A DNA stretch of 64,000 nt from an uncultured virus (IMG/VR IMGVR_UViG_3300010355_000481). Lineage: Duplodnaviria; Heunggongvirae; Uroviricota; Caudoviricetes; Crassvirales. This document shows, piece after piece, positions 21,288 through 46,014 of the stretch. The notes under the pieces are model-generated. The model saw only the letters and a list, made by a program, of their open reading frames with translations, ran no database searches and had not been told where the DNA came from. The position numbers and the translations under genes are program-made. Within the stretch, counting starts at the first letter, position 1, and every line of letters starts with the position of its first letter. Location of the stretch: the IMG/VR virus record IMGVR_UViG_3300010355_000481. One strand, written 5' to 3'.

Positions 21288-22133
21288 CTACTTACTAGCT
21301 TCTAGTCCTATGGTATTAGGATAAGAATTATCAACCAATCCGATGATAGAACCTAAAAATGATCTACAAATTCCTTTTTTAGAAATGTGTATATGACATT
21401 CAGGTAATGAATGGGTTAACTCTTCTAATTCTGCTTGACAAGAAACTTTACCTAAAACTTGCATAACTACAGTTCTAGTTATAATTCCTAATTTGTGCAT
21501 ACGTCTTAATATTCTACCTCCGCTACTTTCAGACATTCCAAGTAGTCGGGCCATATGAGTTTTTCCAGATACGATGTATTGTTTATTTTTTGTTCGGGCA
21601 CGCTTCATCCAGTCGTCCGTAGTTATACCTAAAGCTGATGCACATTTTGCAACTTTCTTTAAGATACTGTTACGTTTCTTTTCGCTAGTAATTCTGTCAC
21701 CGATTCTATAATAAGCATCTTCTGTATCTTTCCATTTCTCGATACGGTATTGTTGTTGTTTAAAGTTTTTTAATACAAGACTATGTTGTATTTGGTGGTA
21801 TACTTTTTCCCATGTTAAAGGACCATTACATGTAAATCTTTTAAAACATTCAACGTATCTGTTGAACATTAAATTAGCTTCCCCCACGACACCATCATTT
21901 AGTATCGTACAGATATTGCTAAATTTAATTAAACGAATGGCACCTTTAGTTTGAATTAAAGTACCAGCTTTTAAACCACGGGATTTTATGCTTTGAAATC
22001 TTACTAAACCTAAACCTAAAGAAGCTGCAGCTTGATGATCCGTTTGAACACCATACTGCAATATACCATTATTCCTCATTTTAAGGAGGAAAGAGGCGTC
22101 TGTTAGTAATTTAAGTTTTAATAATTGTTGCAT
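21288..22133 (-). CDS. Basic HTH DNA-binding protein (possibly Rep-like); start revised to ATG 22133
   Basis: THMARLLGMSESSGGRILRRMHKLGII looks like a winged HTH; the longer predicted start runs through a terminator hairpin. Confidence 0.5.
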   Translation of the reverse strand: MQQLLKLKLLTDASFLLKMRNNGILQYGVQTDHQAAASLGLGLVRFQSIKSRGLKAGTLIQTKGAIRLIKFSNICTILNDGVVGEANLMFNRYVECFKRFTCNGPLTWEKVYHQIQHSLVLKNFKQQQYRIEKWKDTEDAYYRIGDRITSEKKRNSILKKVAKCASALGITTDDWMKRARTKNKQYIVSGKTHMARLLGMSESSGGRILRRMHKLGIITRTVVMQVLGKVSCQAELEELTHSLPECHIHISKKGICRSFLGSIIGLVDNSYPNTIGLEASK

Positions 22134-22167
22134 AAAAAAAAATCCTGAAGTATAACCTTCAGGATCC
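22134..22167 (-). terminator. Terminator directly upstream of the HTH gene ATG
   Basis: GGATCCTGAAG-GTTATA-CTTCAGGAT followed by a long U-tract. Confidence 0.7.
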
Positions 22168-22310
22168 TTTTTAGCCGAGACAAAATAATAATTGTTAATT
22201 ATTACAAATATAATTCTCTTTGTGGGAGAAATAAAATCTTTTTTAAACATTAACAATTCTATATTTTTGCTGCCTCGGCTAAGAGTAAACTAAGATATAC
22301 TTGTTACAAT

Positions 22311-22342
22311 CAAAGGTAAGTACTGGTATTGTATTTACCAAA
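22311..22342 (-). promoter_or_regulatory. Bacteroidota sigma-A type promoter
   Basis: TTTG-N20-TACCTTTG. Confidence 0.7.
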
Positions 22343-22360
22343 TATTTATTTATTTATTTG

Positions 22361-22450
22361 TGAGAGCAGTAGGAGTCGAACCTACAATCTTTACCATAAA
22401 GGACCTGATTTACAGTCAGGCAGCACAGACGCCATAGTGCTAATACTCCC
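22361..22450 (-). tRNA. tRNA-Tyr(GTA)
   Basis: CCTGA-CTGTAAA-TCAGG anticodon arm; long variable arm; GTTCGA T-loop. Confidence 0.9.
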
Positions 22451-22454
22451 AGAG

Positions 22455-22537
22455 AGGAAAATTGTGGACTCGAACCACAGTCCAATAAAGGACCTACACC
22501 CTTAGCAAGGGATCTCGAACCTATCGATTAACTTTCC
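22455..22537 (-). tRNA. tRNA-Ser(GCT)
   Basis: CCC-TTGCTAA-GGG anticodon arm; long variable arm. Confidence 0.8.
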
Positions 22538-22540
22538 ATG

Positions 22541-22629
22541 AGGTAGAGACAGGGTTCGAACCTGCACATCAGTTTTACCCGACATCACTGTTTTCAAGAC
22601 AGATAAGTACGCCAGCATTACGCTCTACC
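22541..22629 (-). tRNA. tRNA-Ser(TGA)
   Basis: CTGT-CTTGAAA-ACAG anticodon arm; long variable arm. Confidence 0.9.
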
Positions 22630-22633
22630 ATAG

Positions 22634-22715
22634 TGACCCTAGAGAGATTCGAACTCTCAATCCTCGCGGCAAGGGATTTTAAGTCCCTCATGTATCCCAG
22701 TTCCATCATAAGGCC
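22634..22715 (-). tRNA. tRNA-Leu(TAA)
   Basis: AGGGA-CTTAAAA-TCCCT anticodon arm. Confidence 0.9.
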
Positions 22716-22720
22716 AAGTG

Positions 22721-22764
22721 TACTCGTAGAGGGATTCGAACCCCCAAACCTTTCGGCACCGGTT
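22721..22764 (-). pseudogene. 3' half of an interrupted tRNA-Leu
   Basis: Variable arm, T-arm and acceptor strand TACGAGT-A; pairs with the 5' half at 23545-23580. Confidence 0.8.
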
Positions 22765-22765
22765 G

Positions 22766-22852
22766 TAAGAGAAGAGGGATTCGAACCCTCACGCTACTAT
22801 TATTTCGCTTTCGATTCTAAATCGAAATTGTCTACCATTCCAGCATTCTCCC
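22766..22852 (-). tRNA. tRNA-Leu(TAG), overlapping the 3' end of the HNH gene
   Basis: TTCGA-TTTAGAA-TCGAA anticodon arm; complete cloverleaf. Confidence 0.9.
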
Positions 22853-23492
22853 ATGCTTTTATCCATTTTCTAATACAATTATCAGATACCCCATATTCCT
22901 TACCTGTACCCACAAACCCTAACGAATTTATCTTTACTTTCAACACATCTAAACTTGGTCTATCTACTACTTTCCGTAAGTGGCTTCTACCTATCTTTTT
23001 ATACACCGCCTTTTTCCTTACAACTTTTTCTTTAATAGGTTTATCTTTTTTGAGCCTATCTCTAGTAACACTTGCATGACAATTTGGGCATAATATTTGT
23101 AAGTTACTTAATTCATTATTAAAATGATCACTATCAATATGATCAAGTTCTAATACTATAGGTTTACCTCCCCACTCTGATAAACAACATATCTCACATT
23201 TATATTCTTTGTAACCATCCCTTATTAATCTTTCCCTTAATTTAGCACTACTGGTTGGAAAATCTTTTTTACAGTACTCAAGAGCATCTTTTTTTGTAAA
23301 TTTTTTGTTTTTACGCCACCCTTGACCTAAAAAATAATCAGGGGTTTCTATTCCAAAAAATTTAGCTCTTCTAGTTAAATGAGACTGACTACCAGTCCTA
23401 GGGCGAATATTTAGTTTTCTACATACATCCGCCCACGATTTAGAACCAATTAAAGCCTTTTCTATTATTTCCTTTGTATATTTAATCTTCAT
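22800..23492 (-). CDS. HNH homing endonuclease
   Basis: CEIC...LELDHIDSDHFNNELSNLQILCPNCH; N- and C-terminal HTH-like segments. Confidence 0.9.
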   Translation of the reverse strand: MKIKYTKEIIEKALIGSKSWADVCRKLNIRPRTGSQSHLTRRAKFFGIETPDYFLGQGWRKNKKFTKKDALEYCKKDFPTSSAKLRERLIRDGYKEYKCEICCLSEWGGKPIVLELDHIDSDHFNNELSNLQILCPNCHASVTRDRLKKDKPIKEKVVRKKAVYKKIGRSHLRKVVDRPSLDVLKVKINSLGFVGTGKEYGVSDNCIRKWIKAWENAGMVDNFDLESKAK

Positions 23493-23544
23493 ACTAGTAT
23501 AGGTTATAATTTAAGATACAACATCTATACTAGAATCCAAAACA

Positions 23545-23580
23545 TAAAACTATCGTGTAGACCAATTCCACCATACGAGC
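23545..23580 (-). pseudogene. 5' half of the interrupted tRNA-Leu
   Basis: GCTCGTA-TGGTGGAATTGGTCTACACG-ATAGT-TTTA, broken at the anticodon. Confidence 0.8.
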
Positions 23581-23612
23581 AAAAAAAAATCCCCATCTGG
23601 AAAGACGGGGAC
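23581..23612 (-). terminator. Attenuator terminator of tRNA operon 1
   Basis: GTCCCCGTCT-TTCC-AGATGGGGAT plus U-tract abutting the first tRNA. Confidence 0.85.
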
Positions 23613-23638
23613 TAAAAATGCAAAATTAATATACATAG

Positions 23639-23701
23639 CTATCCCAGTCGATCCAATAGGCTCGATAACAGATAACTATATGACAAACGAAAATTCTTCA
23701 T
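23639..23701 (-). CDS. Leader peptide 1 MKNFRLSYSYLLSSLLDRLG
   Basis: 11 consecutive Leu/Ser/Tyr codons; lies between promoter and terminator. Confidence 0.85.
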   Translation of the reverse strand: MKNFRLSYSYLLSSLLDRLG

Positions 23702-23707
23702 TACAAT

Positions 23708-23739
23708 CAAAGATAGGTTACTCATTTTAAACTACCAAA
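23708..23739 (-). promoter_or_regulatory. Promoter of tRNA operon 1
   Basis: TTTG-N20-TATCTTTG. Confidence 0.75.
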
Positions 23740-23757
23740 TATTTCTTTACTTTTTTG

Positions 23758-23828
23758 TGGATACTGTTGGATTCGAACCAAATACTATCTCATTGCAAGT
23801 GAGAAGTGCTACCATCGCATCAGCCTCA
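23758..23828 (-). tRNA. tRNA-Ala(TGC)
   Basis: TCTCA-CTTGCAA-TGAGA anticodon arm; imperfect acceptor stem. Confidence 0.75.
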
Positions 23829-23832
23829 TGTG

Positions 23833-23905
23833 TAGGATTACCTGGATTTGAACCAGGAACGCTTGAGTATCAGTCAAGTATAATAACCAATTTTAATATA
23901 ATCCT
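23833..23905 (-). tRNA. tRNA-Ile(GAT)
   Basis: CTTGA-CTGATAC-TCAAG anticodon arm. Confidence 0.85.
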
Positions 23906-23910
23906 AAATG

Positions 23911-23984
23911 TTGATCCTCAGAGTCTCGAACTCTGTACCTCGCGATTATGAGTCGCACGCTCTAACCGGATGAGCTAAGGATCG
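23911..23984 (-). tRNA. tRNA with CAT anticodon, probably Ile2 (lysidine)
   Basis: GCGA-CTCATAA-TCGC arm and D-arm resemble bacterial tRNA-Ile2; C1:A72 mismatch leaves fMet possible. Confidence 0.75.
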
Positions 23985-23989
23985 ATATG

Positions 23990-24060
23990 CAGTCTATACG
24001 AGACTCGAACTCGTTTCCCCACCGTGACAAGGTGAGAGGATACCCATACCCCAATAGACT
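23990..24060 (-). tRNA. tRNA-Asp(GTC)
   Basis: TCACC-TTGTCAC-GGTGG anticodon arm. Confidence 0.85.
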
Positions 24061-24067
24061 ATTTTTG

Positions 24068-24139
24068 TACTCCTAACGGGAATCGAACCCGTGTCTGCTC
24101 ATGGAAAGTGAGCTATCCTAACCGCTAGAAGATAGGAGC
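24068..24139 (-). tRNA. tRNA-Glu(TTC)
   Basis: GCTCA-CTTTCCA-TGAGC anticodon arm. Confidence 0.9.
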
Positions 24140-24144
24140 AAATG

Positions 24145-24215
24145 TGCAGTATGTAGGAGTCAAACCTACGCAACTTGATTGGAAGTCAAGGGTGCTATCG
24201 TAACACTTATACTGC
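24145..24215 (-). tRNA. tRNA-Gly(TCC)
   Basis: CTTGA-CTTCCAA-TCAAG anticodon arm. Confidence 0.85.
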
Positions 24216-24280
24216 ATGTATATGTAATCACATATAAATTGATAGTTTATACTATTTTTATATGTAAAAACATATGATTG

Positions 24281-24362
24281 TAGCGGGGGTCCGATTCGAA
24301 CGGACGTCTTTTATTTTTCCAGGTTATGAGTCTGGTGACCTCAACCACTAGTCCACCCCGCC
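24281..24362 (-). tRNA. tRNA-Met(CAT) with enlarged A-rich variable loop
   Basis: CCAGA-CTCATAA-CCTGG anticodon arm; acceptor GGCGGGG/CCCCGCT. Confidence 0.8.
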
Positions 24363-24365
24363 ATG

Positions 24366-24439
24366 CGGACAACGTAGGGCTCGAACCTACTATCCTCTGT
24401 TTAACAAACAGCCGCTTATACCACTTAAGCTTCTCGTCC
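24366..24439 (-). tRNA. tRNA-Asn(GTT)
   Basis: CTGT-TTGTTAA-ACAG anticodon arm. Confidence 0.85.
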
Positions 24440-24449
24440 AGTATTTTTG

Positions 24450-24522
24450 CAGATCTGCAGGGATTCAAACCCTGATAAACTCCTTAGAACGAAGTTGTCC
24501 TATTCAGTTAAACGACAGATCT
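24450..24522 (-). tRNA. tRNA-Arg(TCT)
   Basis: ACTTC-GTTCTAA-GGAGT anticodon arm. Confidence 0.85.
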
Positions 24523-24528
24523 ATGTTG

Positions 24529-24601
24529 TTGGATGACAGAGAATCGAACTCTGGACTCCTCCTTGTAAGGGAGGGATGATTAACCACTTCACCATCTTCC
24601 A
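24529..24601 (-). tRNA. tRNA-Val(TAC)
   Basis: CCTCC-CTTACAA-GGAGG anticodon arm. Confidence 0.85.
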
Positions 24602-24610
24602 ATATTTTTG

Positions 24611-24683
24611 TACCCCTGCCGAGAGTCGAACTCGGCCCCACGGATTAAAAGTCCGTTGCCTACTACCAGTTTGCTACAAGGGT
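24611..24683 (-). tRNA. tRNA-Lys(TTT)
   Basis: ACGGA-CTTTTAA-TCCGT anticodon arm. Confidence 0.9.
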
Positions 24684-24689
24684 AAAAAT

Positions 24690-24721
24690 AAAAAACCCCG
24701 GTAGCTATCTGGCTCCGGGGT
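24690..24721 (-). terminator. Attenuator terminator of tRNA operon 2
   Basis: ACCCCGGAGC-CAGATA-GCTACCGGGGT plus U-tract. Confidence 0.85.
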
Positions 24722-24743
24722 CTTCTAAAAGTTTTATATACAC

Positions 24744-24809
24744 TTAGACATAAATAGACCCGGAGCCAGACTTCTCATCTGCCACTCTCCCGATAATATT
24801 TATGATCAT
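24744..24809 (-). CDS. Leader peptide 2 MIINIIGRVADEKSGSGSIYV (alternative GTG start at 24821)
   Basis: First 13 codons use exactly the ten amino acids of the downstream tRNAs. Confidence 0.85.
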   Translation of the reverse strand: MIINIIGRVADEKSGSGSIYV

Positions 24810-24839
24810 TATTTGTTGCACTATTTAAATTTTATGTTA

Positions 24840-24847
24840 CAAATGTA
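24840..24847 (-). promoter_or_regulatory. Promoter (-7 box) of tRNA operon 2
   Basis: TACATTTG. Confidence 0.6.
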
Positions 24848-24903
24848 ACGCTGTTTATAATTCAAGTTACATCTTTATTTGATAATAACAAATTTTTTGC
24901 TAA

Positions 24904-25104
24904 TTATTTTTTAAATTTCTTTTCGTAGACTTCTATCATCTTATTATGATAATTTAATAACCCAGTTTCATTAGTAATATTTCCATTAGGTATTCTGAAT
25001 TTATTTTTATCAATCTTTTTTACAAAAATATCTGATTCAGTTAAACCAGTAGTAATCAATACACTATTTACTGTTTTCTTTAATTTCTCTATACTTATAT
25101 TCAT
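24904..25104 (-). CDS. Hypothetical protein between tRNA operons
   Basis: 66 aa; own TATCTTTG box just upstream. Confidence 0.55.
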   Translation of the reverse strand: MNISIEKLKKTVNSVLITTGLTESDIFVKKIDKNKFRIPNGNITNETGLLNYHNKMIEVYEKKFKK

Positions 25105-25133
25105 AATGCAAAGATAAGTCTTTTATTTTAAAG

Positions 25134-25206
25134 TTTTCCAGACAGGACTCGAACCTGTACCCTCGAATCCGTAGTCCGAGATCCTATCCAATTAAACGAC
25201 AGGAAA
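25134..25206 (-). tRNA. tRNA-Arg(ACG)
   Basis: TCGGA-CTACGGA-TTCGA anticodon arm. Confidence 0.85.
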
Positions 25207-25212
25207 ATATAG

Positions 25213-25284
25213 AGTGACTAGCCGGGCTCGAACCGGTCGATAACTACCCCACAAGTAGTCGTGTTACCACTACACTATAGCCAC
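25213..25284 (-). tRNA. tRNA-His(GTG)
   Basis: ACTAC-TTGTGGG-GTAGT anticodon arm. Confidence 0.9.
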
Positions 25285-25286
25285 GG

Positions 25287-25357
25287 TTTTCCCACCTAGA
25301 TTCGAACTAGGAAATTCAGCTCCAAAAACTGACGTGTTACCGTTACACTATGAGAAA
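25287..25357 (-). tRNA. tRNA-Gln(TTG)
   Basis: TCAGT-TTTTGGA-GCTGA anticodon arm. Confidence 0.9.
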
Positions 25358-25362
25358 ATAAG

Positions 25363-25436
25363 AGCTTCTTTACAGACTCGAACTGTATCTATTCCTGATT
25401 ACAAGTCAGGTGCTGCACCATATCAGCATAAGAAGC
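25363..25436 (-). tRNA. tRNA-Thr(TGT)
   Basis: CCTGA-CTTGTAA-TCAGG anticodon arm. Confidence 0.9.
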
Positions 25437-25471
25437 AAAATTGTTTACCTCATCAATAAGGTAAACATTTG

Positions 25472-25548
25472 TGGTACAGACTGGATTCGAACCAGTACAA
25501 ATTTCCCAGGGCTTCAACCTAGAGCTCTACCGTTGGAGCTACTGCACC
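25472..25548 (-). tRNA. tRNA-Phe(GAA)
   Basis: CTAGG-TTGAAGC-CCTGG anticodon arm. Confidence 0.9.
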
Positions 25549-25553
25549 ATAAG

Positions 25554-25629
25554 AGACCGGAACCAGAATCGAACTGGCATTAAATAGGATTTGCAGTTCT
25601 ATGCCTTTTCCAATATTGGCTATCCGATC
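25554..25629 (-). tRNA. tRNA-Cys(GCA)
   Basis: TAGAA-CTGCAAA-TCCTA anticodon arm; U discriminator. Confidence 0.85.
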
Positions 25630-25633
25630 ATTG

Positions 25634-25704
25634 CGTGACGACAGGGATTCGAACCCCGATCAATGGTTTTGGAGACCACCATGCTACCGTTGCACCACCT
25701 TCAC
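25634..25704 (-). tRNA. tRNA-Trp(CCA)
   Basis: GTGGT-CTCCAAA-ACCAT anticodon arm. Confidence 0.9.
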
Positions 25705-25708
25705 AAGT

Positions 25709-25791
25709 CAAGCCAGGTTAGGTCATTACTCCTAATTTTTTACCTTAATCGGTACTGAGGATGTACTAGTATCTTTCCTCCCCTCCAGCTT
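25709..25791 (-). ncRNA. tRNA-sized cloverleaf-like RNA of unknown type
   Basis: Closing stem plus three hairpins; occupies a slot in the tRNA array; no canonical T-loop or anticodon loop. Confidence 0.45.
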
Positions 25792-25793
25792 TG

Positions 25794-25866
25794 TCTACAT
25801 GACCCGATTCGAACAGGCGAAAACTTGGTCCCAAACCAAGTGGATTAACCCCTCTCCCACATGTAG
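25794..25866 (-). tRNA. tRNA-Pro(TGG)
   Basis: CTTGG-TTTGGGA-CCAAG anticodon arm. Confidence 0.9.
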
Positions 25867-25871
25867 AAAAT

Positions 25872-25898
25872 AAAAAACCCTCCGTATTCGGGAGGGTT
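25872..25898 (-). terminator. Attenuator terminator of tRNA operon 3
   Basis: AACCCTCC-CGAATAC-GGAGGGTT plus U-tract. Confidence 0.85.
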
Positions 25899-25920
25899 CA
25901 GTTTAGTAATTATATGATAA

Positions 25921-25992
25921 CTACACTACATAACCCTCCAGCTTGGTAAACCAAGGTTGTTGAGGACATGTATGTGTGCGATTTGTTTTCAT
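25921..25992 (-). CDS. Leader peptide 3 MKTNRTHTCPQQPWFTKLEGYVV
   Basis: 12 consecutive codons using exactly R,T,H,C,P,Q,W,F, the downstream tRNA set. Confidence 0.85.
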   Translation of the reverse strand: MKTNRTHTCPQQPWFTKLEGYVV

Positions 25993-26031
25993 AAATTATA
26001 ATAAGCTTTAGATTTGCATCTAGCCTACAAT

Positions 26032-26062
26032 CAAAGATAAGTCAAGTTTTTATATTTCCAAA
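26032..26062 (-). promoter_or_regulatory. Promoter of tRNA operon 3
   Basis: TTTG-N19-TATCTTTG. Confidence 0.75.
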
Positions 26063-26135
26063 TATTTGTCCAGTTTTTTTCTAAATAAACTGGACATTTC
26101 TTTTGCGATAAGTATCGTAAAGTGATACATAACGC

Positions 26136-26163
26136 AAAAAAAGTCCCCCAAGAATGGAGGACT
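26136..26163 (-). terminator. Terminator of the structural operon
   Basis: AGTCCTCCATTCTTGGGGACTTTTTTT. Confidence 0.7.
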
Positions 26164-26209
26164 CTAAACTCACTTTAAACCAATAAAGAGGGAGTTTTAA
26201 CCAATAAGA

Positions 26210-26329
26210 TTAAGCCGCTTTTTTCATACGTGGTAATTGCGACCATTTAATGCTACAACCTCTACGTGGACAGCCAGTCGAAGCTTTAGTACGAGGTTTT
26301 GTTATTTTAAATAAGGTTTTCTTTTTCAT
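26210..26329 (-). CDS. Small basic protein (39 aa), absent from the ORF track
   Basis: MKKKTLFKITKPRTKASTGCPRRGCSIKWSQLPRMKKAA; fills the gap between fibre gene and terminator. Confidence 0.55.
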   Translation of the reverse strand: MKKKTLFKITKPRTKASTGCPRRGCSIKWSQLPRMKKAA

Positions 26330-26340
26330 ATTATATATTT

Positions 26341-28797
26341 TTATATTAAATCAATTGTTACACCTTCGAAACTGATATAGATATTTCTAGTAGTATTTAC
26401 ACTAGACATCATTACTCCAGTATGCGTTTCGTTTGTATCATCACGGTATGAAGTATAGTTTCTTTCTAATTGGAATACCGTACCTGCTTTTTTCAAGTTA
26501 AAATTAACGTGAGTATTAACCGAATCATTGATTACGACAGAAGAATAACTATACACTCCATGGCGTTGATAAATAGAATCTTTTAAACCGTAGTTAGCAT
26601 TACTACTCGGTAATGGGTATCCACATAATGATAAACCAGTTGCGTTGAATATATCATCTACGATAGTAGCTTCTGCAAAAGCAGCTGAAACAGAACCTAA
26701 CACGACGATCGATGGCCCAGAAGAGAAATCTTTATATACCCCACCTCTAAACTTCAATTTATTATTTTCTACGATATATTCTAAACCATCAGGTAACCAA
26801 GCATTTTGTAAAATACCAGAAGGTACCGCTTGGTATGAAGTACATGCAGTTGGTACATAACCCAATGTAGTTGTGTATACTGCAGAAACCCCAGTAGTTA
26901 ACAAAGAGCATTGTCTTGTGACTTGGATATTTAAAGTATGAGGGATCTTCGTACCGAAGAAAGGCATCGATACTACTGTCTTAGCGAAAGTAGGGTTATA
27001 CGTTGATACTAAGGCGATAACATGTGCAGGATTTCCAGATACGTTTGTATAATCTACTTTTACCGAAACCATATCATCATCGTTGGCGCCTAACCAACCA
27101 ACTAATAGGTTTGTATCATCTCCGTCATTTTGGATAACAAAACTAATTTCAGGAGCAGTTACTGTAGCACAAGGGTTTGTACTTTGTAATTTAAGATCTA
27201 TTAAACCACAATCGGTACCACTTGGATCCTGAACAATAGATATGCTATTATCAGAAGAAGTAAAGTGAATATCTTCGGAAGGGTTTAACATAATTGAAGC
27301 CCATTCGCCATCACCGTTAGTACATTTTGCACGAACACGTGCACCTAAAATATCACAAGAAATACTAGGGAAAGCCGTCATATTATATTTAAGTATACCA
27401 GAAGCTACACTTACATAATTAGCATCACCATTTATCCATGTTAATGGTGAACCGGTAGTACCTCTAAATTCAACTTCATAATCGGTATTAATACTTGTAT
27501 GACCAGAAAATTCAAATATAAAGTTAGTCCCATCATTGTAAAGACGTAAACCGTACGCAAGTAAAGGAGATTGTACAAATACTCCCCCGTCGGTACCAGC
27601 TTGTGCAGCATTACAAGTATCTGTCGAATATGAAACAGGGCTACTTGGTACATATAAACCATTACCTGTATTCACCAAAATATTACCGCCAGTAAGTGTA
27701 TCTATATTTACATCGGCTTTAATACCTGCAGCATCACTTGATAAAGTAACGGAAGAAGTATTTTGGAAAATAACATCAGATTTAATGATATTACCTGGAA
27801 GGATAGTCATGTTTACAGTATCAGTATCTGATATCGAAACAGCACCAGAAGCCATCGGTACGTACAACCCAGTCGGCAATACTTGTAAGGCATTCGTACC
27901 CGATGGATCAAGTATAACTTGAGATGACAAATTATATCCACCTAATATAGGCGTTAAAGTATGACCTACTGATGGGCTATTTGCCGTAGTAAGTAATGTA
28001 TTTCCAGAAGGGCAACATCCGATGTTTATACCATTAGGGCCGTAAGTAATTGGCGCAGCACTTGCAGGGTCAAATCTAACTTGAGCACTTACTTGATAAT
28101 TATTACCTGAAGGAGTTACTGTTATATCGACTGAAGAAGTATCTAAACCAGAAACTGTAGTTGCAGGACCAGAAGTTGTTGGTGGTGCAACATATAAACC
28201 ATTAGGTCCAACTTGGATAGCATTACCAGGAGTTGTATCTATTTTAACAAGAGATTGGACTGAATATCCACCTACTGTAGGAAGCACGGTAGTATCTACT
28301 GTATTTGTATCGATACCTACTAATGTTGTACTTGCCGTAGACGGTGATGGACATGCCATATATAAACCATCTGACAAAATTTGTAAACAGTTATTAGAAG
28401 TAGCTGACAATCTTACGGCTGCAACTAATTGTTCATTTAGGCCGACATTTGTATTAAGGATACTGACAGAACTGCTACCTACAATCTTATCACTTAGGTA
28501 GCCTGATGTACTATCAGATGCAGAAGCTTTTACCCTAATATCGGTAGCTGTTACGACGATATTTCCACAAAGTTTTTGTGCGAAGCTTTCAAATACATCT
28601 GTAAATGAAGTCCCTTTTAAAATAGTATCGGCACAAACCGTTAAATCTTTCGATAAAAATAAACAATCACCCCAGTTAGGGTGTAAACATCCTGTAGTAC
28701 AAGGAGTTGGAGGGCAAGGTTGTGGGTTACAATTACAAGGACAAGGCGTACCACAAGGGTCTGGGCAGCATTTATTACAAGTTGTGTGGTGAGACAT
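26341..28797 (-). CDS. Fibre/spike structural protein
   Basis: 818 aa; Cys/Pro-rich N-terminus; repeated N(A/C)(L/I)QxxxxGLY units. Confidence 0.65.
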   Translation of the reverse strand: MSHHTTCNKCCPDPCGTPCPCNCNPQPCPPTPCTTGCLHPNWGDCLFLSKDLTVCADTILKGTSFTDVFESFAQKLCGNIVVTATDIRVKASASDSTSGYLSDKIVGSSSVSILNTNVGLNEQLVAAVRLSATSNNCLQILSDGLYMACPSPSTASTTLVGIDTNTVDTTVLPTVGGYSVQSLVKIDTTPGNAIQVGPNGLYVAPPTTSGPATTVSGLDTSSVDITVTPSGNNYQVSAQVRFDPASAAPITYGPNGINIGCCPSGNTLLTTANSPSVGHTLTPILGGYNLSSQVILDPSGTNALQVLPTGLYVPMASGAVSISDTDTVNMTILPGNIIKSDVIFQNTSSVTLSSDAAGIKADVNIDTLTGGNILVNTGNGLYVPSSPVSYSTDTCNAAQAGTDGGVFVQSPLLAYGLRLYNDGTNFIFEFSGHTSINTDYEVEFRGTTGSPLTWINGDANYVSVASGILKYNMTAFPSISCDILGARVRAKCTNGDGEWASIMLNPSEDIHFTSSDNSISIVQDPSGTDCGLIDLKLQSTNPCATVTAPEISFVIQNDGDDTNLLVGWLGANDDDMVSVKVDYTNVSGNPAHVIALVSTYNPTFAKTVVSMPFFGTKIPHTLNIQVTRQCSLLTTGVSAVYTTTLGYVPTACTSYQAVPSGILQNAWLPDGLEYIVENNKLKFRGGVYKDFSSGPSIVVLGSVSAAFAEATIVDDIFNATGLSLCGYPLPSSNANYGLKDSIYQRHGVYSYSSVVINDSVNTHVNFNLKKAGTVFQLERNYTSYRDDTNETHTGVMMSSVNTTRNIYISFEGVTIDLI

Positions 28798-37957: not shown

Positions 37958-39655
37958 TTACATTAAGTTACCGAATGGCTTACCTGTTTTAGGATTGTAA
38001 GGTAAGAATACTAATACTTGAGTAGGATCTTTTACCCAGATACTACCAACTGGCTTACGTAAGAAGGCTCCGAATCCAGAAGTATGTGTTGAAGCGATGT
38101 GGCTATAAGCTGCACCTCCGTCCATAAATCCTGCAGAACTCTTACCATACATCGGATGGCTATCAGTACCGTTGATCACATAGTGACGAACTTTAGGGTT
38201 TGATCTACGAATCAAGAAGATATTATCTTTTTTCGTATTGATGTTGTAAGCGATGTAAGAGAAACTTGACAATCTCCAAGTACCATAAGGTGAACTTACC
38301 ATCGGGTTATCTAATTCAGAAGCGTTCCATGTGTTATCAAATGCAGGGTTGTATTTGATATTTACTTGGTAAACCCCCGGAATAGTCCAACCTGTGAACA
38401 ATGTAGCATTAGCTTTCAAGTTTGTAGACTTACCTTGTAAGAATCCAAATTCTTGGTTTTGTAATACCACCGTAGAACCGAATCCAGAGTTTTGGTATTT
38501 AGCTTGGATAGCATGAGATGCTTGTAACATACCTGCCCATCCTGTTTCTAATTCGATAGAAGGTTCGCTACCTACAGTTGTTAAGTCACGACGACCTAAG
38601 ATGTAGTTTTGTAAACCAGTTTCGATGATACCGATATCAAATCCGTAGATATTGTAAGGGTTAACGTAACCAGACTTTAATTGGAACCATAAACCTGTAG
38701 GTAATTGAATTTCTTCTTGACCATCATATTGTTTAACAGATCCACCTGGAGACCACATCAACATTTGAGACTCATCGTTATGAAGAATACCGTAAGAAAT
38801 ATCATCCATTAAATAAGCGAATGCACCAGAAGCTTGACCGCTACCCAAAGCAGCTTTCATTTGATCCATAGTCATATCAGACTTGGCGCTATTTAAATCA
38901 GGTACAGTTGGATCTGGAACATCACTTACACGGAAGTATTCTTTTACTTTAGTGTAGTAGTTTTTCAAAGTGATTGCTGCAGTAGAACTACCGTCGGCAA
39001 ATTGACAAACTTTGTCAGATAACCAGTAGTGTGAGTTTACTTCGGCGTTAGACACTTTAATGATGTATTCTTTAGCAGAATTCAATCCTTTAAATTTCCA
39101 TGGCGTCCATTCTTGACCATACTCTGGAGAACGTAAACTACCGAAACGACCTAATGGTTGATTTGGTTGTAAGTATTCTTTTGGTACAGATGTCATGCTC
39201 GTAGCAATCAACTGAACAGTAATGATGAAGTTAGTACCGGCAGCACGAACTTGATCAGGAGCTACTAATAAAGCAAATTCCGAGAACTGAGAAGGTTTCA
39301 AGATAGTACCAGGACCGAAAGCGTCACTGTCAACCATCAATTCAAACTTACTGTCATCAGCACCCGGATAGTCAGTATTAGATAAATCTTTTACAATACG
39401 GATAAGGTTGTCTGTTTTTACAGGCACCTTGTAGCGCAATAGGTTACCATCGTGTTCGATGATATTGTTCGTGTCAAAGTCACTCCATTTAAACAAAGGA
39501 AGTTCAGATTTCATGGCTTGTGACCAGAATGTGATTAGACCCAGATCTTTAATATTGTCTGATTCATTTAATCGGGAAGCCAGATTCGTCATGTTAAGAT
39601 GCGACTGGGCATCCTTTAGTTGAGTCTGACGATAAAAAATACCGTATGGATTCAT
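37958..39655 (-). CDS. Major capsid protein
   Basis: 565 aa; portal-scaffold-capsid order; strong codon bias; C-terminal SIWVKDPTQV motif. Confidence 0.85.
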   Translation of the reverse strand: MNPYGIFYRQTQLKDAQSHLNMTNLASRLNESDNIKDLGLITFWSQAMKSELPLFKWSDFDTNNIIEHDGNLLRYKVPVKTDNLIRIVKDLSNTDYPGADDSKFELMVDSDAFGPGTILKPSQFSEFALLVAPDQVRAAGTNFIITVQLIATSMTSVPKEYLQPNQPLGRFGSLRSPEYGQEWTPWKFKGLNSAKEYIIKVSNAEVNSHYWLSDKVCQFADGSSTAAITLKNYYTKVKEYFRVSDVPDPTVPDLNSAKSDMTMDQMKAALGSGQASGAFAYLMDDISYGILHNDESQMLMWSPGGSVKQYDGQEEIQLPTGLWFQLKSGYVNPYNIYGFDIGIIETGLQNYILGRRDLTTVGSEPSIELETGWAGMLQASHAIQAKYQNSGFGSTVVLQNQEFGFLQGKSTNLKANATLFTGWTIPGVYQVNIKYNPAFDNTWNASELDNPMVSSPYGTWRLSSFSYIAYNINTKKDNIFLIRRSNPKVRHYVINGTDSHPMYGKSSAGFMDGGAAYSHIASTHTSGFGAFLRKPVGSIWVKDPTQVLVFLPYNPKTGKPFGNLM

Positions 39656-40964: not shown

Positions 40965-43733
40965 TTACTTTTTATCGTATTTGTTCTTATTGATACGAGC
41001 TACTTGTACTTTCTTTTCTTCGATCGCATTACGTGTCGCCAATGTCTTTTCTTGTAAAAGTTGGTTCTTTTTATCCATGGTTACTTTGTGCTGATCCATC
41101 ATTTGTTTAGAGTTCAAAGTCTTGTCAAAGTTTTGTTGTTTATTGAACTCTTTTAAATTTTCAAGTGAGTCAATTTGCTGATTTGCATTAGCATCAGTTT
41201 GTAAACCACCAAGTTCTTGGATCTCTGCAATAAGTACTTTAGTCTCAAGTTCACGTTCTTTCCAGTAGTTTTCGTTATCCATTTCTTTTTGACGTTGCTC
41301 TGCTTGGGCTCTTTGTTGCTCCTGTAGCATTTTCATATCATGCTCTTGTTTCGCTTGAGCTTCTTGGCGACGCTTATCTTCTGCTTTTTCTAACTGCTCG
41401 ATAATTTGAGAAGGGCTTTGAGTATTATAGATTTTCATATAATCACTCATCTCCGCCCCGACAGTATTAATCTTTTCGGCCATATTCTGCATTTTCTCTA
41501 CAAGTGCTTTCGTAGCCGCAGAACTTTGGCAGAATAATTTTAAATCTGCAAGTAACAATTCTTTACCTTCGATCTCGAACAAAACGTTCTCACCATCAGT
41601 ATTCGTATAACTTAATCGTACAGTTGGTTTAGTAGATGCTAAGTATTGTTCGGCATTTAACATTAATTGACGAACTCTAGGCATAAACTGGTGTAAATGC
41701 TTCTCAAACAAATATTCAGTTTGAGCATATGAATTCTCCATCGAAGCCTGTACGCCCGTAGCTGATTCAGAAGCAAGAGTTGCTCCAGTTCGTTGAGGCG
41801 TAATTCCCAATAGAGAAAAAGCCATATTCTTATAATATTCCCCTAATTGGATATTTCTTAAGATATCTGGGGTATTACTAAAGTCAAGTACTTGGAAATG
41901 TGAGAAACCTGAACCTTGAGGATTATTACCAGGTGATCCGTCCATCAATGCTACGTTAGTGTTACGAATAACTTCTAACCACTTATTCATACTATTCTTA
42001 CCCCATGTACCATCAAATGATTTTTTAGGAATATAGTTCTGATCAATCATGATAACTTTACCATTTGCAAGGTTATTACCTAGCATATCTAAGTTTTGGT
42101 TATTTACGATATTGAAACAAATCTGAGAAGGACTTAATTTTCGTACGAGAGATACAGATTTAGTATTACGATCACTCATTGTATACCCTTCGATAGGAAT
42201 AAGACCGATCTGTAAATCTATAGGATCTCCGCTGATATAAATAGCATCGCCATTTACAGAAGATGCCCCAGGATAATTTCCAGCACCAAGTAATCTACGA
42301 GAGATTTTTGCACCGAAACGAATTTGTGGTTTCCAATACCAATCAATATGTTCGCCGTGGATAAGATTTTCTTTTGTTTTCTTTTGCGTGATAGAATTAT
42401 CATATACTGGCTTATCCGTTATACGGTAATCTTCATCAATTATTTCTACGATAGCTATACCATCTAATCCTTTTTTGGTAAGAGTACCTTGTCTAACATA
42501 AGAACGCCAGTAGGTCTCGGTCACACGAAAAAGATTACTCTTAAGCATAGAATCCAAATCATTCTGATACGTATTACGCTTAAGGGATTGTTCGTATATA
42601 CTTAACGAGGATTTAAGTTTTTCGTTTAGTAAGGCATTCTCGTACGTAACGTCGGTGATATTTTCTGGATATGGTTTAGAGAAATCTGTCCAATTGGATT
42701 TGTCTCCGATATGTGTACCAGCTACGGCATTCACCAGGTGATGCTGATCGGTTATACTATTTACGTTATGACTAGTTTGAAGCAGACGAAAATCAACTTC
42801 ACTCATCATATGTGAATAATTCTTAATAATATCAGATAGAGGTAAATAAATCTGGCGTCCTACATAATTACTTTCCGATGCCCAACGTTGATCAGGGGCC
42901 TTATGTCTAAATACATGTTTAGGGTTCCAAACTTCGGGTAAAATATCATCCTCAAGTGTACGCACATGCATATATGTATGATCAGATACCACGACGTCAC
43001 GGAAAGAAAGAACTTGTAATTCTTTCATATTAAACCTCATATCATCCCAAACTATCATACGATTGGCCCATTGTTCCGCCAATGTTTCGTATGTTTTAAA
43101 CTTTAACTCGGCATCAATTAATTGTTGTGCATAATTAGTTTCTTCCTGGATTTGTTGTTGATTTTCTTCTGTAGGTTGGCCATACTTGGCCGCAATATCA
43201 TCTTGAGCTTTCTTAGACAAGATTTGCATAATATTGTCTTTCTTGTACTTACTCTTTTTGTTTACGGTGAATTCATCTACGCCACGTACGATAATACGCA
43301 TATCACGTTTTAAGTATTCTCCGACTAGTAAATTTACGAACGGCGGAATAAGCGGGAAAAACATGATAGGAAGTTGAGTATCTTCACTTTCCTTGATAAC
43401 ATCTTTGACATAATCACCAAACTCTTCAGAATCGCACCCATAATCTTCAGGAGTTAATATACCTTCGGCCATATCGTAATCCTTAGATAAACCTTTCCAT
43501 TGTAAGGATAGATCATGATAAGCAATACGTTCAAACCAGTCTAAGTTCCATTTCTTCCATTCGTCGTCTTTCTCGAATTTCGAGATCATTTGAATAGGGG
43601 TAATGGCCCAAAGTTTAGCTACATTGATACTCGAAGTCCACCCATTGAGTATTTGGCGCGAAGTCACAACTAAGGAACTCTTAGCTGTCTGGGTAGGTAA
43701 CGGTACTTGTTTTGCTTTCTTGGATTTAGCCAT
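40965..43733 (-). CDS. Portal protein
   Basis: 922 aa; PLIPPFVNLLVGEY and LGITPQRTG motifs; C-terminal coiled coil; follows terminase. Confidence 0.9.
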   Translation of the reverse strand: MAKSKKAKQVPLPTQTAKSSLVVTSRQILNGWTSSINVAKLWAITPIQMISKFEKDDEWKKWNLDWFERIAYHDLSLQWKGLSKDYDMAEGILTPEDYGCDSEEFGDYVKDVIKESEDTQLPIMFFPLIPPFVNLLVGEYLKRDMRIIVRGVDEFTVNKKSKYKKDNIMQILSKKAQDDIAAKYGQPTEENQQQIQEETNYAQQLIDAELKFKTYETLAEQWANRMIVWDDMRFNMKELQVLSFRDVVVSDHTYMHVRTLEDDILPEVWNPKHVFRHKAPDQRWASESNYVGRQIYLPLSDIIKNYSHMMSEVDFRLLQTSHNVNSITDQHHLVNAVAGTHIGDKSNWTDFSKPYPENITDVTYENALLNEKLKSSLSIYEQSLKRNTYQNDLDSMLKSNLFRVTETYWRSYVRQGTLTKKGLDGIAIVEIIDEDYRITDKPVYDNSITQKKTKENLIHGEHIDWYWKPQIRFGAKISRRLLGAGNYPGASSVNGDAIYISGDPIDLQIGLIPIEGYTMSDRNTKSVSLVRKLSPSQICFNIVNNQNLDMLGNNLANGKVIMIDQNYIPKKSFDGTWGKNSMNKWLEVIRNTNVALMDGSPGNNPQGSGFSHFQVLDFSNTPDILRNIQLGEYYKNMAFSLLGITPQRTGATLASESATGVQASMENSYAQTEYLFEKHLHQFMPRVRQLMLNAEQYLASTKPTVRLSYTNTDGENVLFEIEGKELLLADLKLFCQSSAATKALVEKMQNMAEKINTVGAEMSDYMKIYNTQSPSQIIEQLEKAEDKRRQEAQAKQEHDMKMLQEQQRAQAEQRQKEMDNENYWKERELETKVLIAEIQELGGLQTDANANQQIDSLENLKEFNKQQNFDKTLNSKQMMDQHKVTMDKKNQLLQEKTLATRNAIEEKKVQVARINKNKYDKK

Positions 43734-43791: not shown

Positions 43792-46014
43792 TCATGAAAC
43801 ACGACGTCTCGAGTTAAAATATTGACGTTTCGGTAATGAGATACGTACCAGCTGTTCTTCCTTCTCTTCTGTTTCATCGAACTCTGATAATATACCTGTA
43901 TTGATATACATCTCTACGATAGATAGTACCAAACCAAATGACACCAATCTATCGGTATTCATCCCTTTTTCGTAACCAAGACATTCTCGAAGTAAACCAA
44001 TGTCTTTAATACGCTCTGCACCATATATAGTTCTGACAGTTTCTCCTTGAGGGGTGCGTATAACATCTAATATTTCCGACACGTAATCTTTAATCTTATT
44101 CATGATTAAAGTACGGAGTTTACCATTAGGTGCCATATAAATACCATAACCTCTCTGAACACTGGATTCTACCATAACATCCTCGCCCCAGATATTCTTA
44201 GCTTCCGTATCTGTCATTAGATACTTAGGCGCCAAGTTCTTTAACCGCATGTGATCGATAAATGAGGTTACATTGTTCTCGACGATAGCATAAGCATTAT
44301 ATAGACGTAATAAGTACTCGGCTTGCTCATTAGTTTGTTTACGGTCGTCATAACGACCTATATACCAGGCAACTATCTTATAACCTTCGGTCCTTAACTT
44401 AAATTCTCCCGTTTCTGGGTCTTTATATTTAATCTTGGTAATATTCTCCATGATATAAATACAAAACAATGATTCAGAGGTAGTTGTAGTGTCTGTCATG
44501 ATAGGGTCAACACCTGCAAAATATCGTCTAGCCGCTGGTTCAGACTCCCCTCGATCGACACGAGGCAGTTCTAAGATCTGTACGGCACCTCTCTTGTCAT
44601 CATCTGCTTTTCCTTTAAATGGGAATTCATCAATAGGTTTACGATCAGTATGGCCCCATTTAATTAAGCCGTCTTTATCTTCGTACAATTCACAATTAAT
44701 GATATTAGGTTTTTGTACGACCAATCGATCTTCGGTATTCTTTAAGATACGTTTAGGAAAGAAACCGTCTTTTCTTTGTGCAAATCCCTCTTCTGGACTG
44801 GTGATCTTTTGAGATAAGTCAAGTTGCTTAAGTTCGGAAGCTTTATTTGATAATTTTGCTTTTTCTTTCTCCGATTCGATAAACGCCATGGTTACTTCAA
44901 GGTCTGAATTACCATTTTCGTCGTAGAAAGGTTTATTTGTTATAGGGCAGGTACCTTCAAGGTTGTATGCCTCGGAAATAAACAAACAGCAAGGTTTACC
45001 TGCACGAAGAGGATCTTTGTCCCAGATATTTTCGACCGGGAGAAAGTCATAATCATCTGGCGCATAGAAGATAGTCTTTAAATCTTGGGCATCTTCAAGC
45101 TCACCGAGGGCTCCTGATACGATAATAGTACCAGTCATTAAACTACCTTTTTTCAAGGCAGGTGTAATATACCCCAAAGTTTTAAGCATGGTCGGGGTGA
45201 TACCTGCTTCTTCATAGAAAAATATAGTTTGGGCACCACCTACACCACTCTCAGGGCTTTTCTGGAATGTCGTACCTTTAATCAAAGAGTCATTACCAAC
45301 ATATCCACCATCTTTCAGCTCGATACGTTCGATCCATTCGAGCATTTTGGTTTTGGAAGGACCACTTTTAAAGGCCCCTTGTGTGTTTTTATCGCAGTGA
45401 GCTTTATAACGTTCGAGGAATAACCAAGATTTTTTTACTTTTGTTTCATCGATGGCACCGATCGTGTTGATCGTACCCTCAAACCAAAGATATGACCAAA
45501 ATAGGATAGCCATAATTTTTAAAGAATAACCTTTCTGACGAGCTTTTAACACTCCGACATGTTTACCCTTAAGCATAGCCAAGATAACATAGTGGAAAAA
45601 GTACAAGTCATTATCATGTACCAAGGCGAATGATTTCTTCGCACGAATATCATCCATGAACGGACAAAAATTCAGATAGAAGTGGTAAAATCCAGGTACA
45701 TACATATCATCATAGATGACACCTTTCTGACATTTTTCTTTTTCGAACGTCCAAAACTTAATATAAGTCGTAGATCCTTTGGGACCTTTTTGGTACATAC
45801 CCCCATCTAAACCAGAACGTGGGCAAGACTTGGCATATGTCATACCAGTTTCTTTCCACTTCTTCACATTCTTTAAATTGTAGTTCCCCGGCGTTTTAAA
45901 ACAAGATTCGACGTAAGTAGTAAATTCTTCTTTCGTTTCGAATAGCCTATCAACCCAAGTATCGGTGGTTGAATTATAGGAAGGGACTCTAAGGGGGAAT
46001 TCTAAAAATCTCAT
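43792..46014 (-). CDS. terL: Terminase large subunit
   Basis: LKARQKGYS Walker A; FFYEEAG Walker B; FAGVDP nuclease motif; NTDRLVS. Confidence 0.92.
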   Translation of the reverse strand: MRFLEFPLRVPSYNSTTDTWVDRLFETKEEFTTYVESCFKTPGNYNLKNVKKWKETGMTYAKSCPRSGLDGGMYQKGPKGSTTYIKFWTFEKEKCQKGVIYDDMYVPGFYHFYLNFCPFMDDIRAKKSFALVHDNDLYFFHYVILAMLKGKHVGVLKARQKGYSLKIMAILFWSYLWFEGTINTIGAIDETKVKKSWLFLERYKAHCDKNTQGAFKSGPSKTKMLEWIERIELKDGGYVGNDSLIKGTTFQKSPESGVGGAQTIFFYEEAGITPTMLKTLGYITPALKKGSLMTGTIIVSGALGELEDAQDLKTIFYAPDDYDFLPVENIWDKDPLRAGKPCCLFISEAYNLEGTCPITNKPFYDENGNSDLEVTMAFIESEKEKAKLSNKASELKQLDLSQKITSPEEGFAQRKDGFFPKRILKNTEDRLVVQKPNIINCELYEDKDGLIKWGHTDRKPIDEFPFKGKADDDKRGAVQILELPRVDRGESEPAARRYFAGVDPIMTDTTTTSESLFCIYIMENITKIKYKDPETGEFKLRTEGYKIVAWYIGRYDDRKQTNEQAEYLLRLYNAYAIVENNVTSFIDHMRLKNLAPKYLMTDTEAKNIWGEDVMVESSVQRGYGIYMAPNGKLRTLIMNKIKDYVSEILDVIRTPQGETVRTIYGAERIKDIGLLRECLGYEKGMNTDRLVSFGLVLSIVEMYINTGILSEFDETEEKEEQLVRISLPKRQYFNSRRRVS

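Follow-up and report, generated by a model that had tools for sequence, protein, structure and literature searches.

A likely leader-peptide attenuator ahead of a tRNA gene block in a divergent crAss-like phage

The tRNA array and its leader regions

The window, that is, the whole stretch of 64,000 nucleotides that was analyzed (IMG/VR record IMGVR_UViG_3300010355_000481), represents a divergent crAss-like phage, as judged by PHROG matches and by tblastn with its portal protein, the top matches of which were crAss-like phages at 21–25% identity (Leptolyngbya phage Lbo-JY46, csAssE-Sib, and the Cellulophaga phages phi17:2 and phi4:1). The public DNA runs that contain the stretch are activated-sludge and wastewater metagenomes; one public run is labelled RNA-Seq and is probably DNA. 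The following genes were assigned by PHROG matches:

43792-46014, minus strand: large terminase subunit
40965-43733, minus strand: portal
37958-39655, minus strand: major head protein

There are 24 tRNA genes in the window, all on the minus strand and grouped in three blocks, in which all 20 amino acids are represented. ARAGORN called 21 of these genes (minus strand) and Rfam added three, which ARAGORN at a relaxed threshold assigned as Asn(gtt), Gly(tcc), and Ala(tgc), these being the Asn, Gly, and Ala genes of block 2.

25133..25866, minus strand: tRNA block 3, Pro(tgg) Trp(cca) Cys(gca) Phe(gaa) Thr(tgt) Gln(ttg) His(gtg) Arg(acg) (ARAGORN, Rfam)
23757..24683, minus strand: tRNA block 2, Lys Val Arg(tct) Asn Met Gly Glu Asp Met Ile Ala (ARAGORN, Rfam)
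22360..22852, minus strand: tRNA block 1, Leu(tag) Leu(taa) Ser(tga) Ser(gct) Tyr (ARAGORN)

The initial annotation had proposed an attenuator directly ahead of block 3, with leader codons matching Pro, Trp, Cys, Phe, Thr, Gln, His, and Arg(ACG), and block 3 indeed holds exactly these eight tRNAs. The codon series that it quoted was found as given in a short ORF at 25992-25921 (leader 3). The features of this region, in the order of transcription, are:

26059..26062, minus strand: -33 box TTTG of the predicted leader-3 promoter, seen in the sequence 19 nt upstream of the -7 box
26032..26039, minus strand: -7 box TATCTTTG of the Bacteroidota sigma-A type TAnnTTTG (exact 14-mer at 26026-26039)
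25921..25992, minus strand: leader ORF 3, 23 codons with start and stop, MKTNRTHTCPQQPWFTKLEGYVV, between the promoter and tRNA-Pro
25945..25980, minus strand: putative regulatory codon run, codons 5-16, RTHTCPQQPWFT, with all eight block-3 amino acids and none outside the set
25942..25956, minus strand: small hairpin CCUUGGUUUACCAAG within leader ORF 3, from minimum-energy folds
25932..25939, minus strand: putative antiterminator strand GGAGGGTT, codons 18-21, a copy of the terminator 3' arm, 16 to 9 nt ahead of the stop
25867..25899, minus strand: predicted intrinsic terminator GAACCCTCC-loop-GGAGGGTTT with T-run (hairpin 25899-25875), 9-bp GC stem, 7-nt loop, -13.9 kcal/mol

The anatomy of an attenuator is complete at this locus, with a promoter, a short ORF, a codon run, an antiterminator in the 3' part of the ORF, and a terminator in the right order and at the right spacing. 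The terminator begins 21 nt past the ORF stop, and its T-run ends one base short of tRNA-Pro. The predicted transcription start near 26027 would give the transcript a 5' leader of ~35 nt. The promoter layout, ATATTTGG-N19/20-TAYCTTTGATTGTA, recurs at 23702-23715 (leader 1), at 22305-22318 (after tRNA-Tyr), and at 63466-63479. The available text of PMC9723704 gives the Bacteroidota sigma-A -7 box consensus as TAnnTTTG at position -12 to -5, and the motif ahead of leaders 3 and 1 fits this box.

The run codons of leader 3 are CGC ACA CAT ACA TGT CCT CAA CAA CCT TGG TTT ACC, 9 of which can be read by block-3 anticodons under strict wobble rules and all 12 if U34 takes the whole four-codon box. 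The isoacceptor-level match of Arg pointed out in the initial annotation was also found, as leader 3 has CGC with Arg(acg) in block 3 and leader 2 has AGA with Arg(tct) in block 2. Among the differences listed for contigs assembled from four public runs, none lies within leader ORF 3.

Blocks 2 and 1 are each preceded by a leader of the same kind:

24744..24809, minus strand: leader ORF 2, MIINIIGRVADEKSGSGSIYV; antiterminator strand 24772-24755, -31.3 kcal/mol, equalled by 0 of 300 shuffles
24689..24727, minus strand: leader-2 terminator, -23.8 kcal/mol
23639..23701, minus strand: leader ORF 1, MKNFRLSYSYLLSSLLDRLG; antiterminator strand 23655-23640, -15.6 kcal/mol, equalled by 4 of 300 shuffles
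23588..23613, minus strand: leader-1 terminator, hairpin and T-run

Leader 2 starts MIINIIGRVADEK and, among the 22 thirteen-codon windows that lie entirely in the block-2 set, is the sole one with all ten block-2 amino acids; its AGA corresponds to Arg(tct), and Ile is represented both by ATA and by ATY. It has no clear promoter of its own and is preceded by a 66-codon ORF (25104-24904) bearing a weaker TATCTTTG box. The leader-1 mRNA would be almost without a 5' leader, because its -7 box is at 23715-23708. The run of leader 1, LSYSYLLSSLL, contains codons for both Leu tRNAs, both Ser tRNAs, and Tyr. The three leaders are nearly disjoint in amino acids, and the leader-by-block matrix of run lengths for the window was 12/2/1, 1/12/1, and 2/2/11.

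RNA folds and chance tests

The earlier claim that leader 3 carries a copy of the terminator 3' arm able to capture the 5' arm was supported, with GGAGGGTT at 25939-25932 and the AACCCTCC arm both found in the sequence. The predicted duplex of GGAGGGUU with AACCCUCC, the terminator 5' arm, has an energy of -14.8 kcal/mol, is the best pairing between the ORF and the 5' arm, and was equalled by 1 of 300 shuffles. In the fold of the free leader-3 RNA (-36 kcal/mol, z = -4.2) the small hairpin sits within a larger helix, in which CCUC and GAGG are paired around CCUUGG...CCAAG, and the terminator is kept. This upstream helix is presumed from the folding model to be the 1:2 or pause structure.

The ribosome was simulated as a masked footprint of 27 nt, after which the RNA was refolded. 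With the A site at codon 9 or codon 13 of leader 3, the antiterminator formed in the nascent RNA, in which the 3' arm of the terminator is not yet made. With the ribosome at the stop codon the GGAGGGTT strand was covered and the terminator formed, and the terminator also formed without a ribosome. Leaders 2 and 1 showed the same pattern, save that leader 2 stalled at codon 13 gave a partial antiterminator of -11.7 kcal/mol (nascent RNA). The full-length minimum-energy fold reverted to the terminator for stalls at codon 13 in leaders 3 and 2, and therefore the choice made by the switch must be kinetic, as it is in classical attenuators.

None of the other short ORFs among the 1179 of 12–60 codons in the window had a run of block-3 amino acids as long as that of leader 3 (12, against 8 for the next best). 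Across the 127,930 twelve-codon windows in six frames, the leader-3 run was the sole one to lie wholly in the block-3 set, and it contains 8 of the 8 set members. The probability of a run of 12 in the 22-codon peptide of leader 3 was at most 1.4e-5, given a six-frame frequency of set residues of 0.322; the corresponding bounds were 1.3e-3 for leader 2 and 3.4e-6 for leader 1. Each of the three window leaders ranked top among the 1179 short ORFs for its own block, leader 1 in a tie. The ORF that ties with leader 1 for the Leu/Ser/Tyr run, +51954 (MNYLIFYSLYLSYSSLYRC), has no terminator or tRNA after it and was taken as chance. The initial annotation had judged a chance match to be unlikely, and comparison with short ORFs of the same genome (rank 1 of 1179) and with windows (1 of 127,930) agreed; a chance origin of leader 3 is excluded.

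Leaders and tRNA blocks in distant phages

Close relatives of the leader region were sought in several ways. Megablast of the region against phages returned no match, and the sole blastn matches were HNH and tRNA pieces. A search with the 818-aa neighbour protein found no relatives, the 117 stretches recovered from IMG/VR with the 14-mer of the -7 box included none related by blastn, and scanning for the full promoter pattern yielded 0 matches. By TerL, the nearest relative is L118/G001 (38.7 kb, 68% identity), which is syntenic but has no tRNA genes and ~0.8 kb in place of the 4.1-kb array of the window, and so it offers no close homologue of leader 3 for comparison. A metagenome scan with back-translated HTCPQQPWFT found one contig, which was identical to the window over 575 aligned bases and thus adds no variation. 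In the collections that were searched, no phage had a close counterpart of leader 3.

Pattern searches reached further. A promoter-plus-ATGAA pattern was found in 119 stretches, 4 of which had a tRNA within 500 nt; two of these (L219 and L243) led to the IMG/VR contigs G002 and G003, and the matches L142 and L169 were dropped, since their 38-aa ORF was unlike a leader. The pattern MKNxNTYY occurred at 24 loci, with arrays at 3 (G002, G003, and L269, which has the leader of G002) and without tRNA at the other 21.

The same design was found in four distant phages: the cultured Cellulophaga phage phi17:2, Leptolyngbya phage Lbo-JY46, G003, and G002. With the three leaders of the window, the comparison comprised 12 leaders in five phages. 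The leaders of the relatives and the tRNA blocks behind them are:

phi17:2, leader QRLHLQELEQP (in MKIQRLHLQELEQPIISGGTGV): block Pro Glu Gln His Leu Leu Arg(acg)
phi17:2, leader annotated as gp077, TKTGITVIDKTKGARAY: block Ala Lys Ile Gly Met Asp Thr Val Arg(tct) Met Tyr
Lbo-JY46, leader A, IDIRNIDIVCAEGVNKC: block Lys Cys Val/Cys Arg(tct) Asn Met Gly Glu Asp Met Ile Ala
Lbo-JY46, leader B, YYSLSLSLS: block Leu Leu
Lbo-JY46, leader C, TRQHTQFWFPT: block Pro Thr Phe Gln His Arg(acg) Trp
G003, leader A, VIDNIRNAEGCKKA: block Lys Cys Val Arg(tct) Asn Met Gly Glu Asp Ile Ile Ala
G003, leader B, YYSLSLLSSL: block Leu Leu Ser Ser Tyr
G003, leader C, TRTHTQQFWFPTR: block Pro Thr Phe Gln His Arg(acg) Trp
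G002, leader YYLSLSWLSL: block Leu Leu Ser Ser Tyr Trp

A GC hairpin with a T-run was present 16–33 nt past the stop in all 12 leaders, and in all 12 the best complement to the terminator 5' arm was within the 3' part of the ORF, the paired sequences varying from leader to leader with the terminator. The numbers of shuffles (of 300) that equalled the duplex of each leader were 1, 0, 4, 14, 10, 11, 3, 1, 1, 2, 0, and 36; that is, at most 14 in 11 of the 12 leaders, whereas the antiterminator of G002 (36) is weak. The in-frame runs are preceded by conserved ATG-AAR starts, and seven of the 12 leaders are predicted to be leaderless or nearly so.

Each of the twelve leaders lists the amino acids of its own tRNA block, and the leader-by-block matrix was strongly diagonal in all four phages with at least two leaders. 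Where a tRNA belongs to a different block, its codons are in the leader of that block, which holds for Cys, Trp, Thr, Leu, Glu, and Tyr. The window is the sole phage with tRNA-Cys in the Pro/Thr/Phe block and the sole one with TGT in the leader of that block; in G003 and Lbo-JY46, Cys is in the Lys/Arg(tct) block and Cys codons are in the leader of that block. Trp appears in a Leu/Ser/Tyr leader solely in G002, where tRNA-Trp belongs to that block. In phi17:2, Leu and Glu have moved to the Pro/Gln/His block and its leader, and Thr and Tyr to the Ala/Lys/Ile block and its leader. The Arg codon is CGY ahead of Arg(acg) and AGA ahead of Arg(tct) in 4 of the 4 phages with both (CGT versus AGA in the three relatives).

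At the codon level, strict wobble allows 121 of the 145 run codons of all leaders to be decoded by their own block, a count that rises to 142 of 145 if U34 serves entire four-codon boxes, and each tRNA of each block is represented by at least one codon in the run of its own leader. For this count an ambiguous tRNA of Lbo-JY46, either Val(tac) or Cys(aca), was entered as Val(tac), and a Ser(tga) seen by eye was added to the Leu block of that phage. Leader B of Lbo-JY46 retains Tyr and AGT codons, and the tools detect two Leu tRNAs alone behind it. An AGG in leader C of G003 is unread by its block. Between G003 and Lbo-JY46, changes within the longest in-set runs are synonymous or replace one amino acid of the block with another; the remaining replacements lie outside these runs, and gaps are of whole codons.

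The ORF gp078 of phi17:2, which lies ahead of a third block (Ser Asn Trp Phe), was considered and found unconvincing as a leader, which leaves that block without a convincing one. Lbo-JY46 and phi17:2 also have solitary tRNAs in other places, and no leader precedes these.

Judged from these sequences, the concordance of leaders and blocks is the strongest support for reading leader 3 as an attenuator. The reading put forward in the initial annotation was supported by the full anatomy, the masked folds, the chance tests, and the comparison across five phages.

Proposed mechanism, alternatives and known systems

We consider it likely that leader 3 and its terminator control the tRNA genes through transcription attenuation of the ribosome-mediated, leader-peptide type. 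We infer that the leader-3 ORF is translated, that the ribosome and the polymerase are coupled, and that a stall-dependent switch responds to a physiological signal. In the proposed mechanism, transcription would begin at the Bacteroidota-type promoter near 26027 and a ribosome would translate the 23-codon leader 3; Bacteroidota do without Shine-Dalgarno sites. If all the tRNAs for codons 5–16 were plentiful, the ribosome would reach the stop, GGAGGGUU would be covered, the terminator hairpin would form, and the polymerase would halt just before tRNA-Pro. If any one of these tRNAs were scarce (host or phage copy, charged or not), the ribosome would stall within the run, leaving GGAGGGUU free to pair with the emerging AACCCUCC, no terminator would form, and the eight tRNA genes would be transcribed. 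Without translation, the upstream pairing (CCUC with GAGG, plus the hairpin) would hold the antiterminator strand, such that termination would be the default.

The tRNAs of block 3 would therefore probably be made only when ribosomes run short of them. Because the output (tRNA) would relieve the signal (stalling), this would be negative feedback, with tRNA supplied on demand. Two more attenuators of the same design would gate blocks 2 and 1, and the three leaders together list 20 amino acids. Amino-acid starvation would trip the same switch, though extra tRNA would be of no help then.

The alternative that survives best, which we nonetheless regard as unlikely, is that the attenuator responds generally to translation speed or to amino-acid starvation, instead of sensing the tRNAs under its control, and that the codon match merely reflects phage codon usage. 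The folds respond to a stall at any codon of the run, and stalling reports charged tRNA, such that a shortage of tRNA and a shortage of amino acids are inseparable by sequence. A general sensor, however, needs no match between leader and block, and yet leader content tracks the block, including the Arg isoacceptor, across five phages in which tRNAs have changed block at least six times; moreover, within one phage the three leaders share almost no amino acids. A general sensor of this kind would open whenever ribosomes slow down, for example on host shut-off, under toxins that target the ribosome, or when amino acids are short.

It appears very improbable to us that the ORF is incidental and that the same terminator and antiterminator serve a switch worked by RNA alone (for example, a tRNA-binding leader like the T-box) or by a protein (for example, one for antitermination). 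Alternative pairings alone do not prove that the ribosome is the effector, and uncharged tRNA is a known ligand of T-box leaders. Against such a switch, Rfam at E up to 1 gave no T-box or other cis-regulatory family at the leader, the runs are in frame behind the conserved ATG-AAR, the run changes between G003 and Lbo-JY46 are synonymous, in-set, or whole-codon indels, and a single RNA specifier could hardly recognize as many as 8 to 11 tRNAs.

Least credible of all is that a chance short ORF lies next to an ordinary terminator that insulates the tRNA block from upstream genes: short ORFs are common in AT-rich DNA, and the unrelated ORF +51954 equals leader 1 for its run, but leader 3 is the one window of 127,930, the three leaders are top-ranked for their own blocks, and the design occurs in four distant phages with matching changes. 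This explanation called for relatives without leader-to-block concordance and failed that test, and a terminator meant for insulation would have no reason to follow a promoter dedicated to the genes and to lie immediately ahead of them.

Leader-peptide attenuation as proposed for leader 3 has several precedents. The thr and ilv leaders are multivalent leader-peptide attenuators of enterobacterial amino-acid operons, and they resemble leader 3 in having a short translated ORF, codons for more than one amino acid, and a choice between terminator and antiterminator that is decided by ribosome position. The design described here differs in that its targets are tRNA genes rather than biosynthetic enzymes and in that 3 to 11 amino acids are listed, most of them one or two times, where the enterobacterial leaders have runs of one or two. 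In addition, its product would feed back directly on the species that is sensed, and its carrier is a phage with a Bacteroidota-type host.

The pheST leader of E. coli is an example of leader-peptide control of genes for the translation apparatus. Leaders with His codons before hisS/hisZ in bacilli are described in the available part of PMC2965389. As proposed for leader 3, attenuation in these cases governs a component of the aminoacylation or decoding machinery for the same amino acid; there, however, the genes are for synthetases and a single amino acid is involved, whereas here the tRNAs themselves would be controlled and many would be sensed together.

T-box leaders sense tRNA status and act through a terminator/antiterminator switch upstream of translation-related genes, with one uncharged tRNA bound directly at a specifier codon and no ribosome involved. 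The terminator/antiterminator switch is common to both systems, and the sensor in leader 3 would be an ORF. Rfam at E up to 1 gave no T-box match in 21500-27000, nor did the Thr, His, Leu, Trp, or Phe leader families match leader 3 at E up to 1, and the genes downstream are tRNAs. The sole match to a leader family was a sub-threshold Phe_leader at 26135-26208 (26.9 bits versus a cut-off of 55), on the upstream terminator.

In Flavobacterium psychrophilum, leader-peptide attenuation is likely upstream of amino-acid operons, according to the available text of PMC9723704. Those candidates resemble leader 3 in promoter type (TAnnTTTG), in the proposed mechanism, and in coming from the phylum to which the phage host probably belongs, and differ in that they precede host biosynthetic operons; tRNA genes are not mentioned in that text. 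A full-text literature search outside the subscription journals found nothing on leader peptides that control tRNA genes, and neither did the available part of PMC2965389 contain anything of the kind. The mechanism of leader-peptide attenuation is known, and tRNA genes would be new among its targets.

Phage tRNA genes are usually seen as constitutive patches for codon usage or as spares against tRNA-cleaving defences. To our knowledge, how their expression is controlled is essentially unknown. The attenuation proposed here would make tRNA supply demand-driven, the leader being an inventory of the block that it gates and providing direct feedback from decoding demand to tRNA supply. More tentatively, the three attenuators may form a complete, partitioned sensor of tRNA demand, by which the phage detects depleted host tRNAs and switches on the matching block alone, a self-correcting counter-measure built of a leaderless mini-gene and a terminator that is possibly widespread in crAss-like and other Bacteroidota phages. 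Depletion of this kind could arise from a codon-usage mismatch, host shut-off, or an anticodon-nuclease defence.

The concordance of leader and block is a simple, computable signature with which such switches can be annotated and missed tRNAs found, and it could help in guessing tRNA identity in phage genomes (e.g., for CAU tRNAs read as Ile). Why phages carry tRNAs, and when these are used, becomes testable with this proposal. One carrier of the design, phi17:2, is cultured with its host.

A homing endonuclease and a tRNA-like fragment ahead of block 1

In the window, an HNH homing-endonuclease ORF separates tRNA-Leu(tag), with which block 1 begins, from the terminator of leader 1, the proposed attenuator ahead of that block.

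22800-23492, minus strand: HNH homing-endonuclease ORF (PHROG 10822, E 4e-43)
23580-23550, minus strand: tRNA-Leu(tag)-like fragment, immediately 3' of the leader 1 terminator

The fragment is similar to the relatives' tRNA-Leu(tag) in that tRNA's 5' half (acceptor and D arm), and it looks like the relic of a tRNA that was broken by insertion of the endonuclease.

Block 2 and the arrays of the relatives

Block 2 encodes two tRNAs with a CAU anticodon, one of which is exceptionally long at 83 nt.

24280-24362, minus strand: CAU-anticodon tRNA
23910-23984, minus strand: CAU-anticodon tRNA

Because the codons of window leader 2 include ATA besides ATG, one of the pair may be a lysidine-type tRNA for Ile. 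Common to Lbo-JY46 and contig G003 is a conserved ORF within the tRNA array, flanked by Arg(tct) and Asn.

L125 (Lbo-JY46 locus), reverse complement, about 1530-1855: ORF of ~110 codons
L245 (G003 locus), about 2075-2405: the same ORF

The region around leader 3

Upstream of leader 3, the structural operon ends with a short basic ORF and a strong terminator.

26210-26329, minus strand: basic ORF, 39 codons
26140-26165, minus strand: strong terminator

An Rfam Phe_leader match on this terminator was sub-threshold (26.9 bits, cut-off 55) and looks like noise. One contig joint from a sludge-digester run (24921-26322), omitting about 1400 bases, would, if real, delete block 3 and leader 3; the joint is unreliable since its shorter side comprises only 24 letters.

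Promoter modules and host

A promoter-like module, ATATTTGG-N19/20-TAYCTTTGATTGTA, is repeated in the window, and a 40-nt promoter precedes each phi17:2 leader in identical copies.

22305-22318, 23702-23715, 26026-26039 and 63466-63479, minus strand: module of the Bacteroidota -33/-7 type
L124 (phi17:2 locus, NC_021798.1), 1480-1520 and 2420-2460: 40-nt promoter

The mRNA of phi17:2 leader 1 would be leaderless, as its ATG lies 4 nt past the -7 box. The three promoters ahead of the Lbo-JY46 (PP438436.1) leaders follow the TTTG / TAnnTTTG pattern that is typical of Bacteroidota, as do others within its array. Lbo-JY46 is recorded with a cyanobacterial host, which is at odds with these promoters, and re-examination of that record may be worthwhile. 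For the sludge phage of the window, the repeated module, being of Bacteroidota type, points to a Bacteroidota host.
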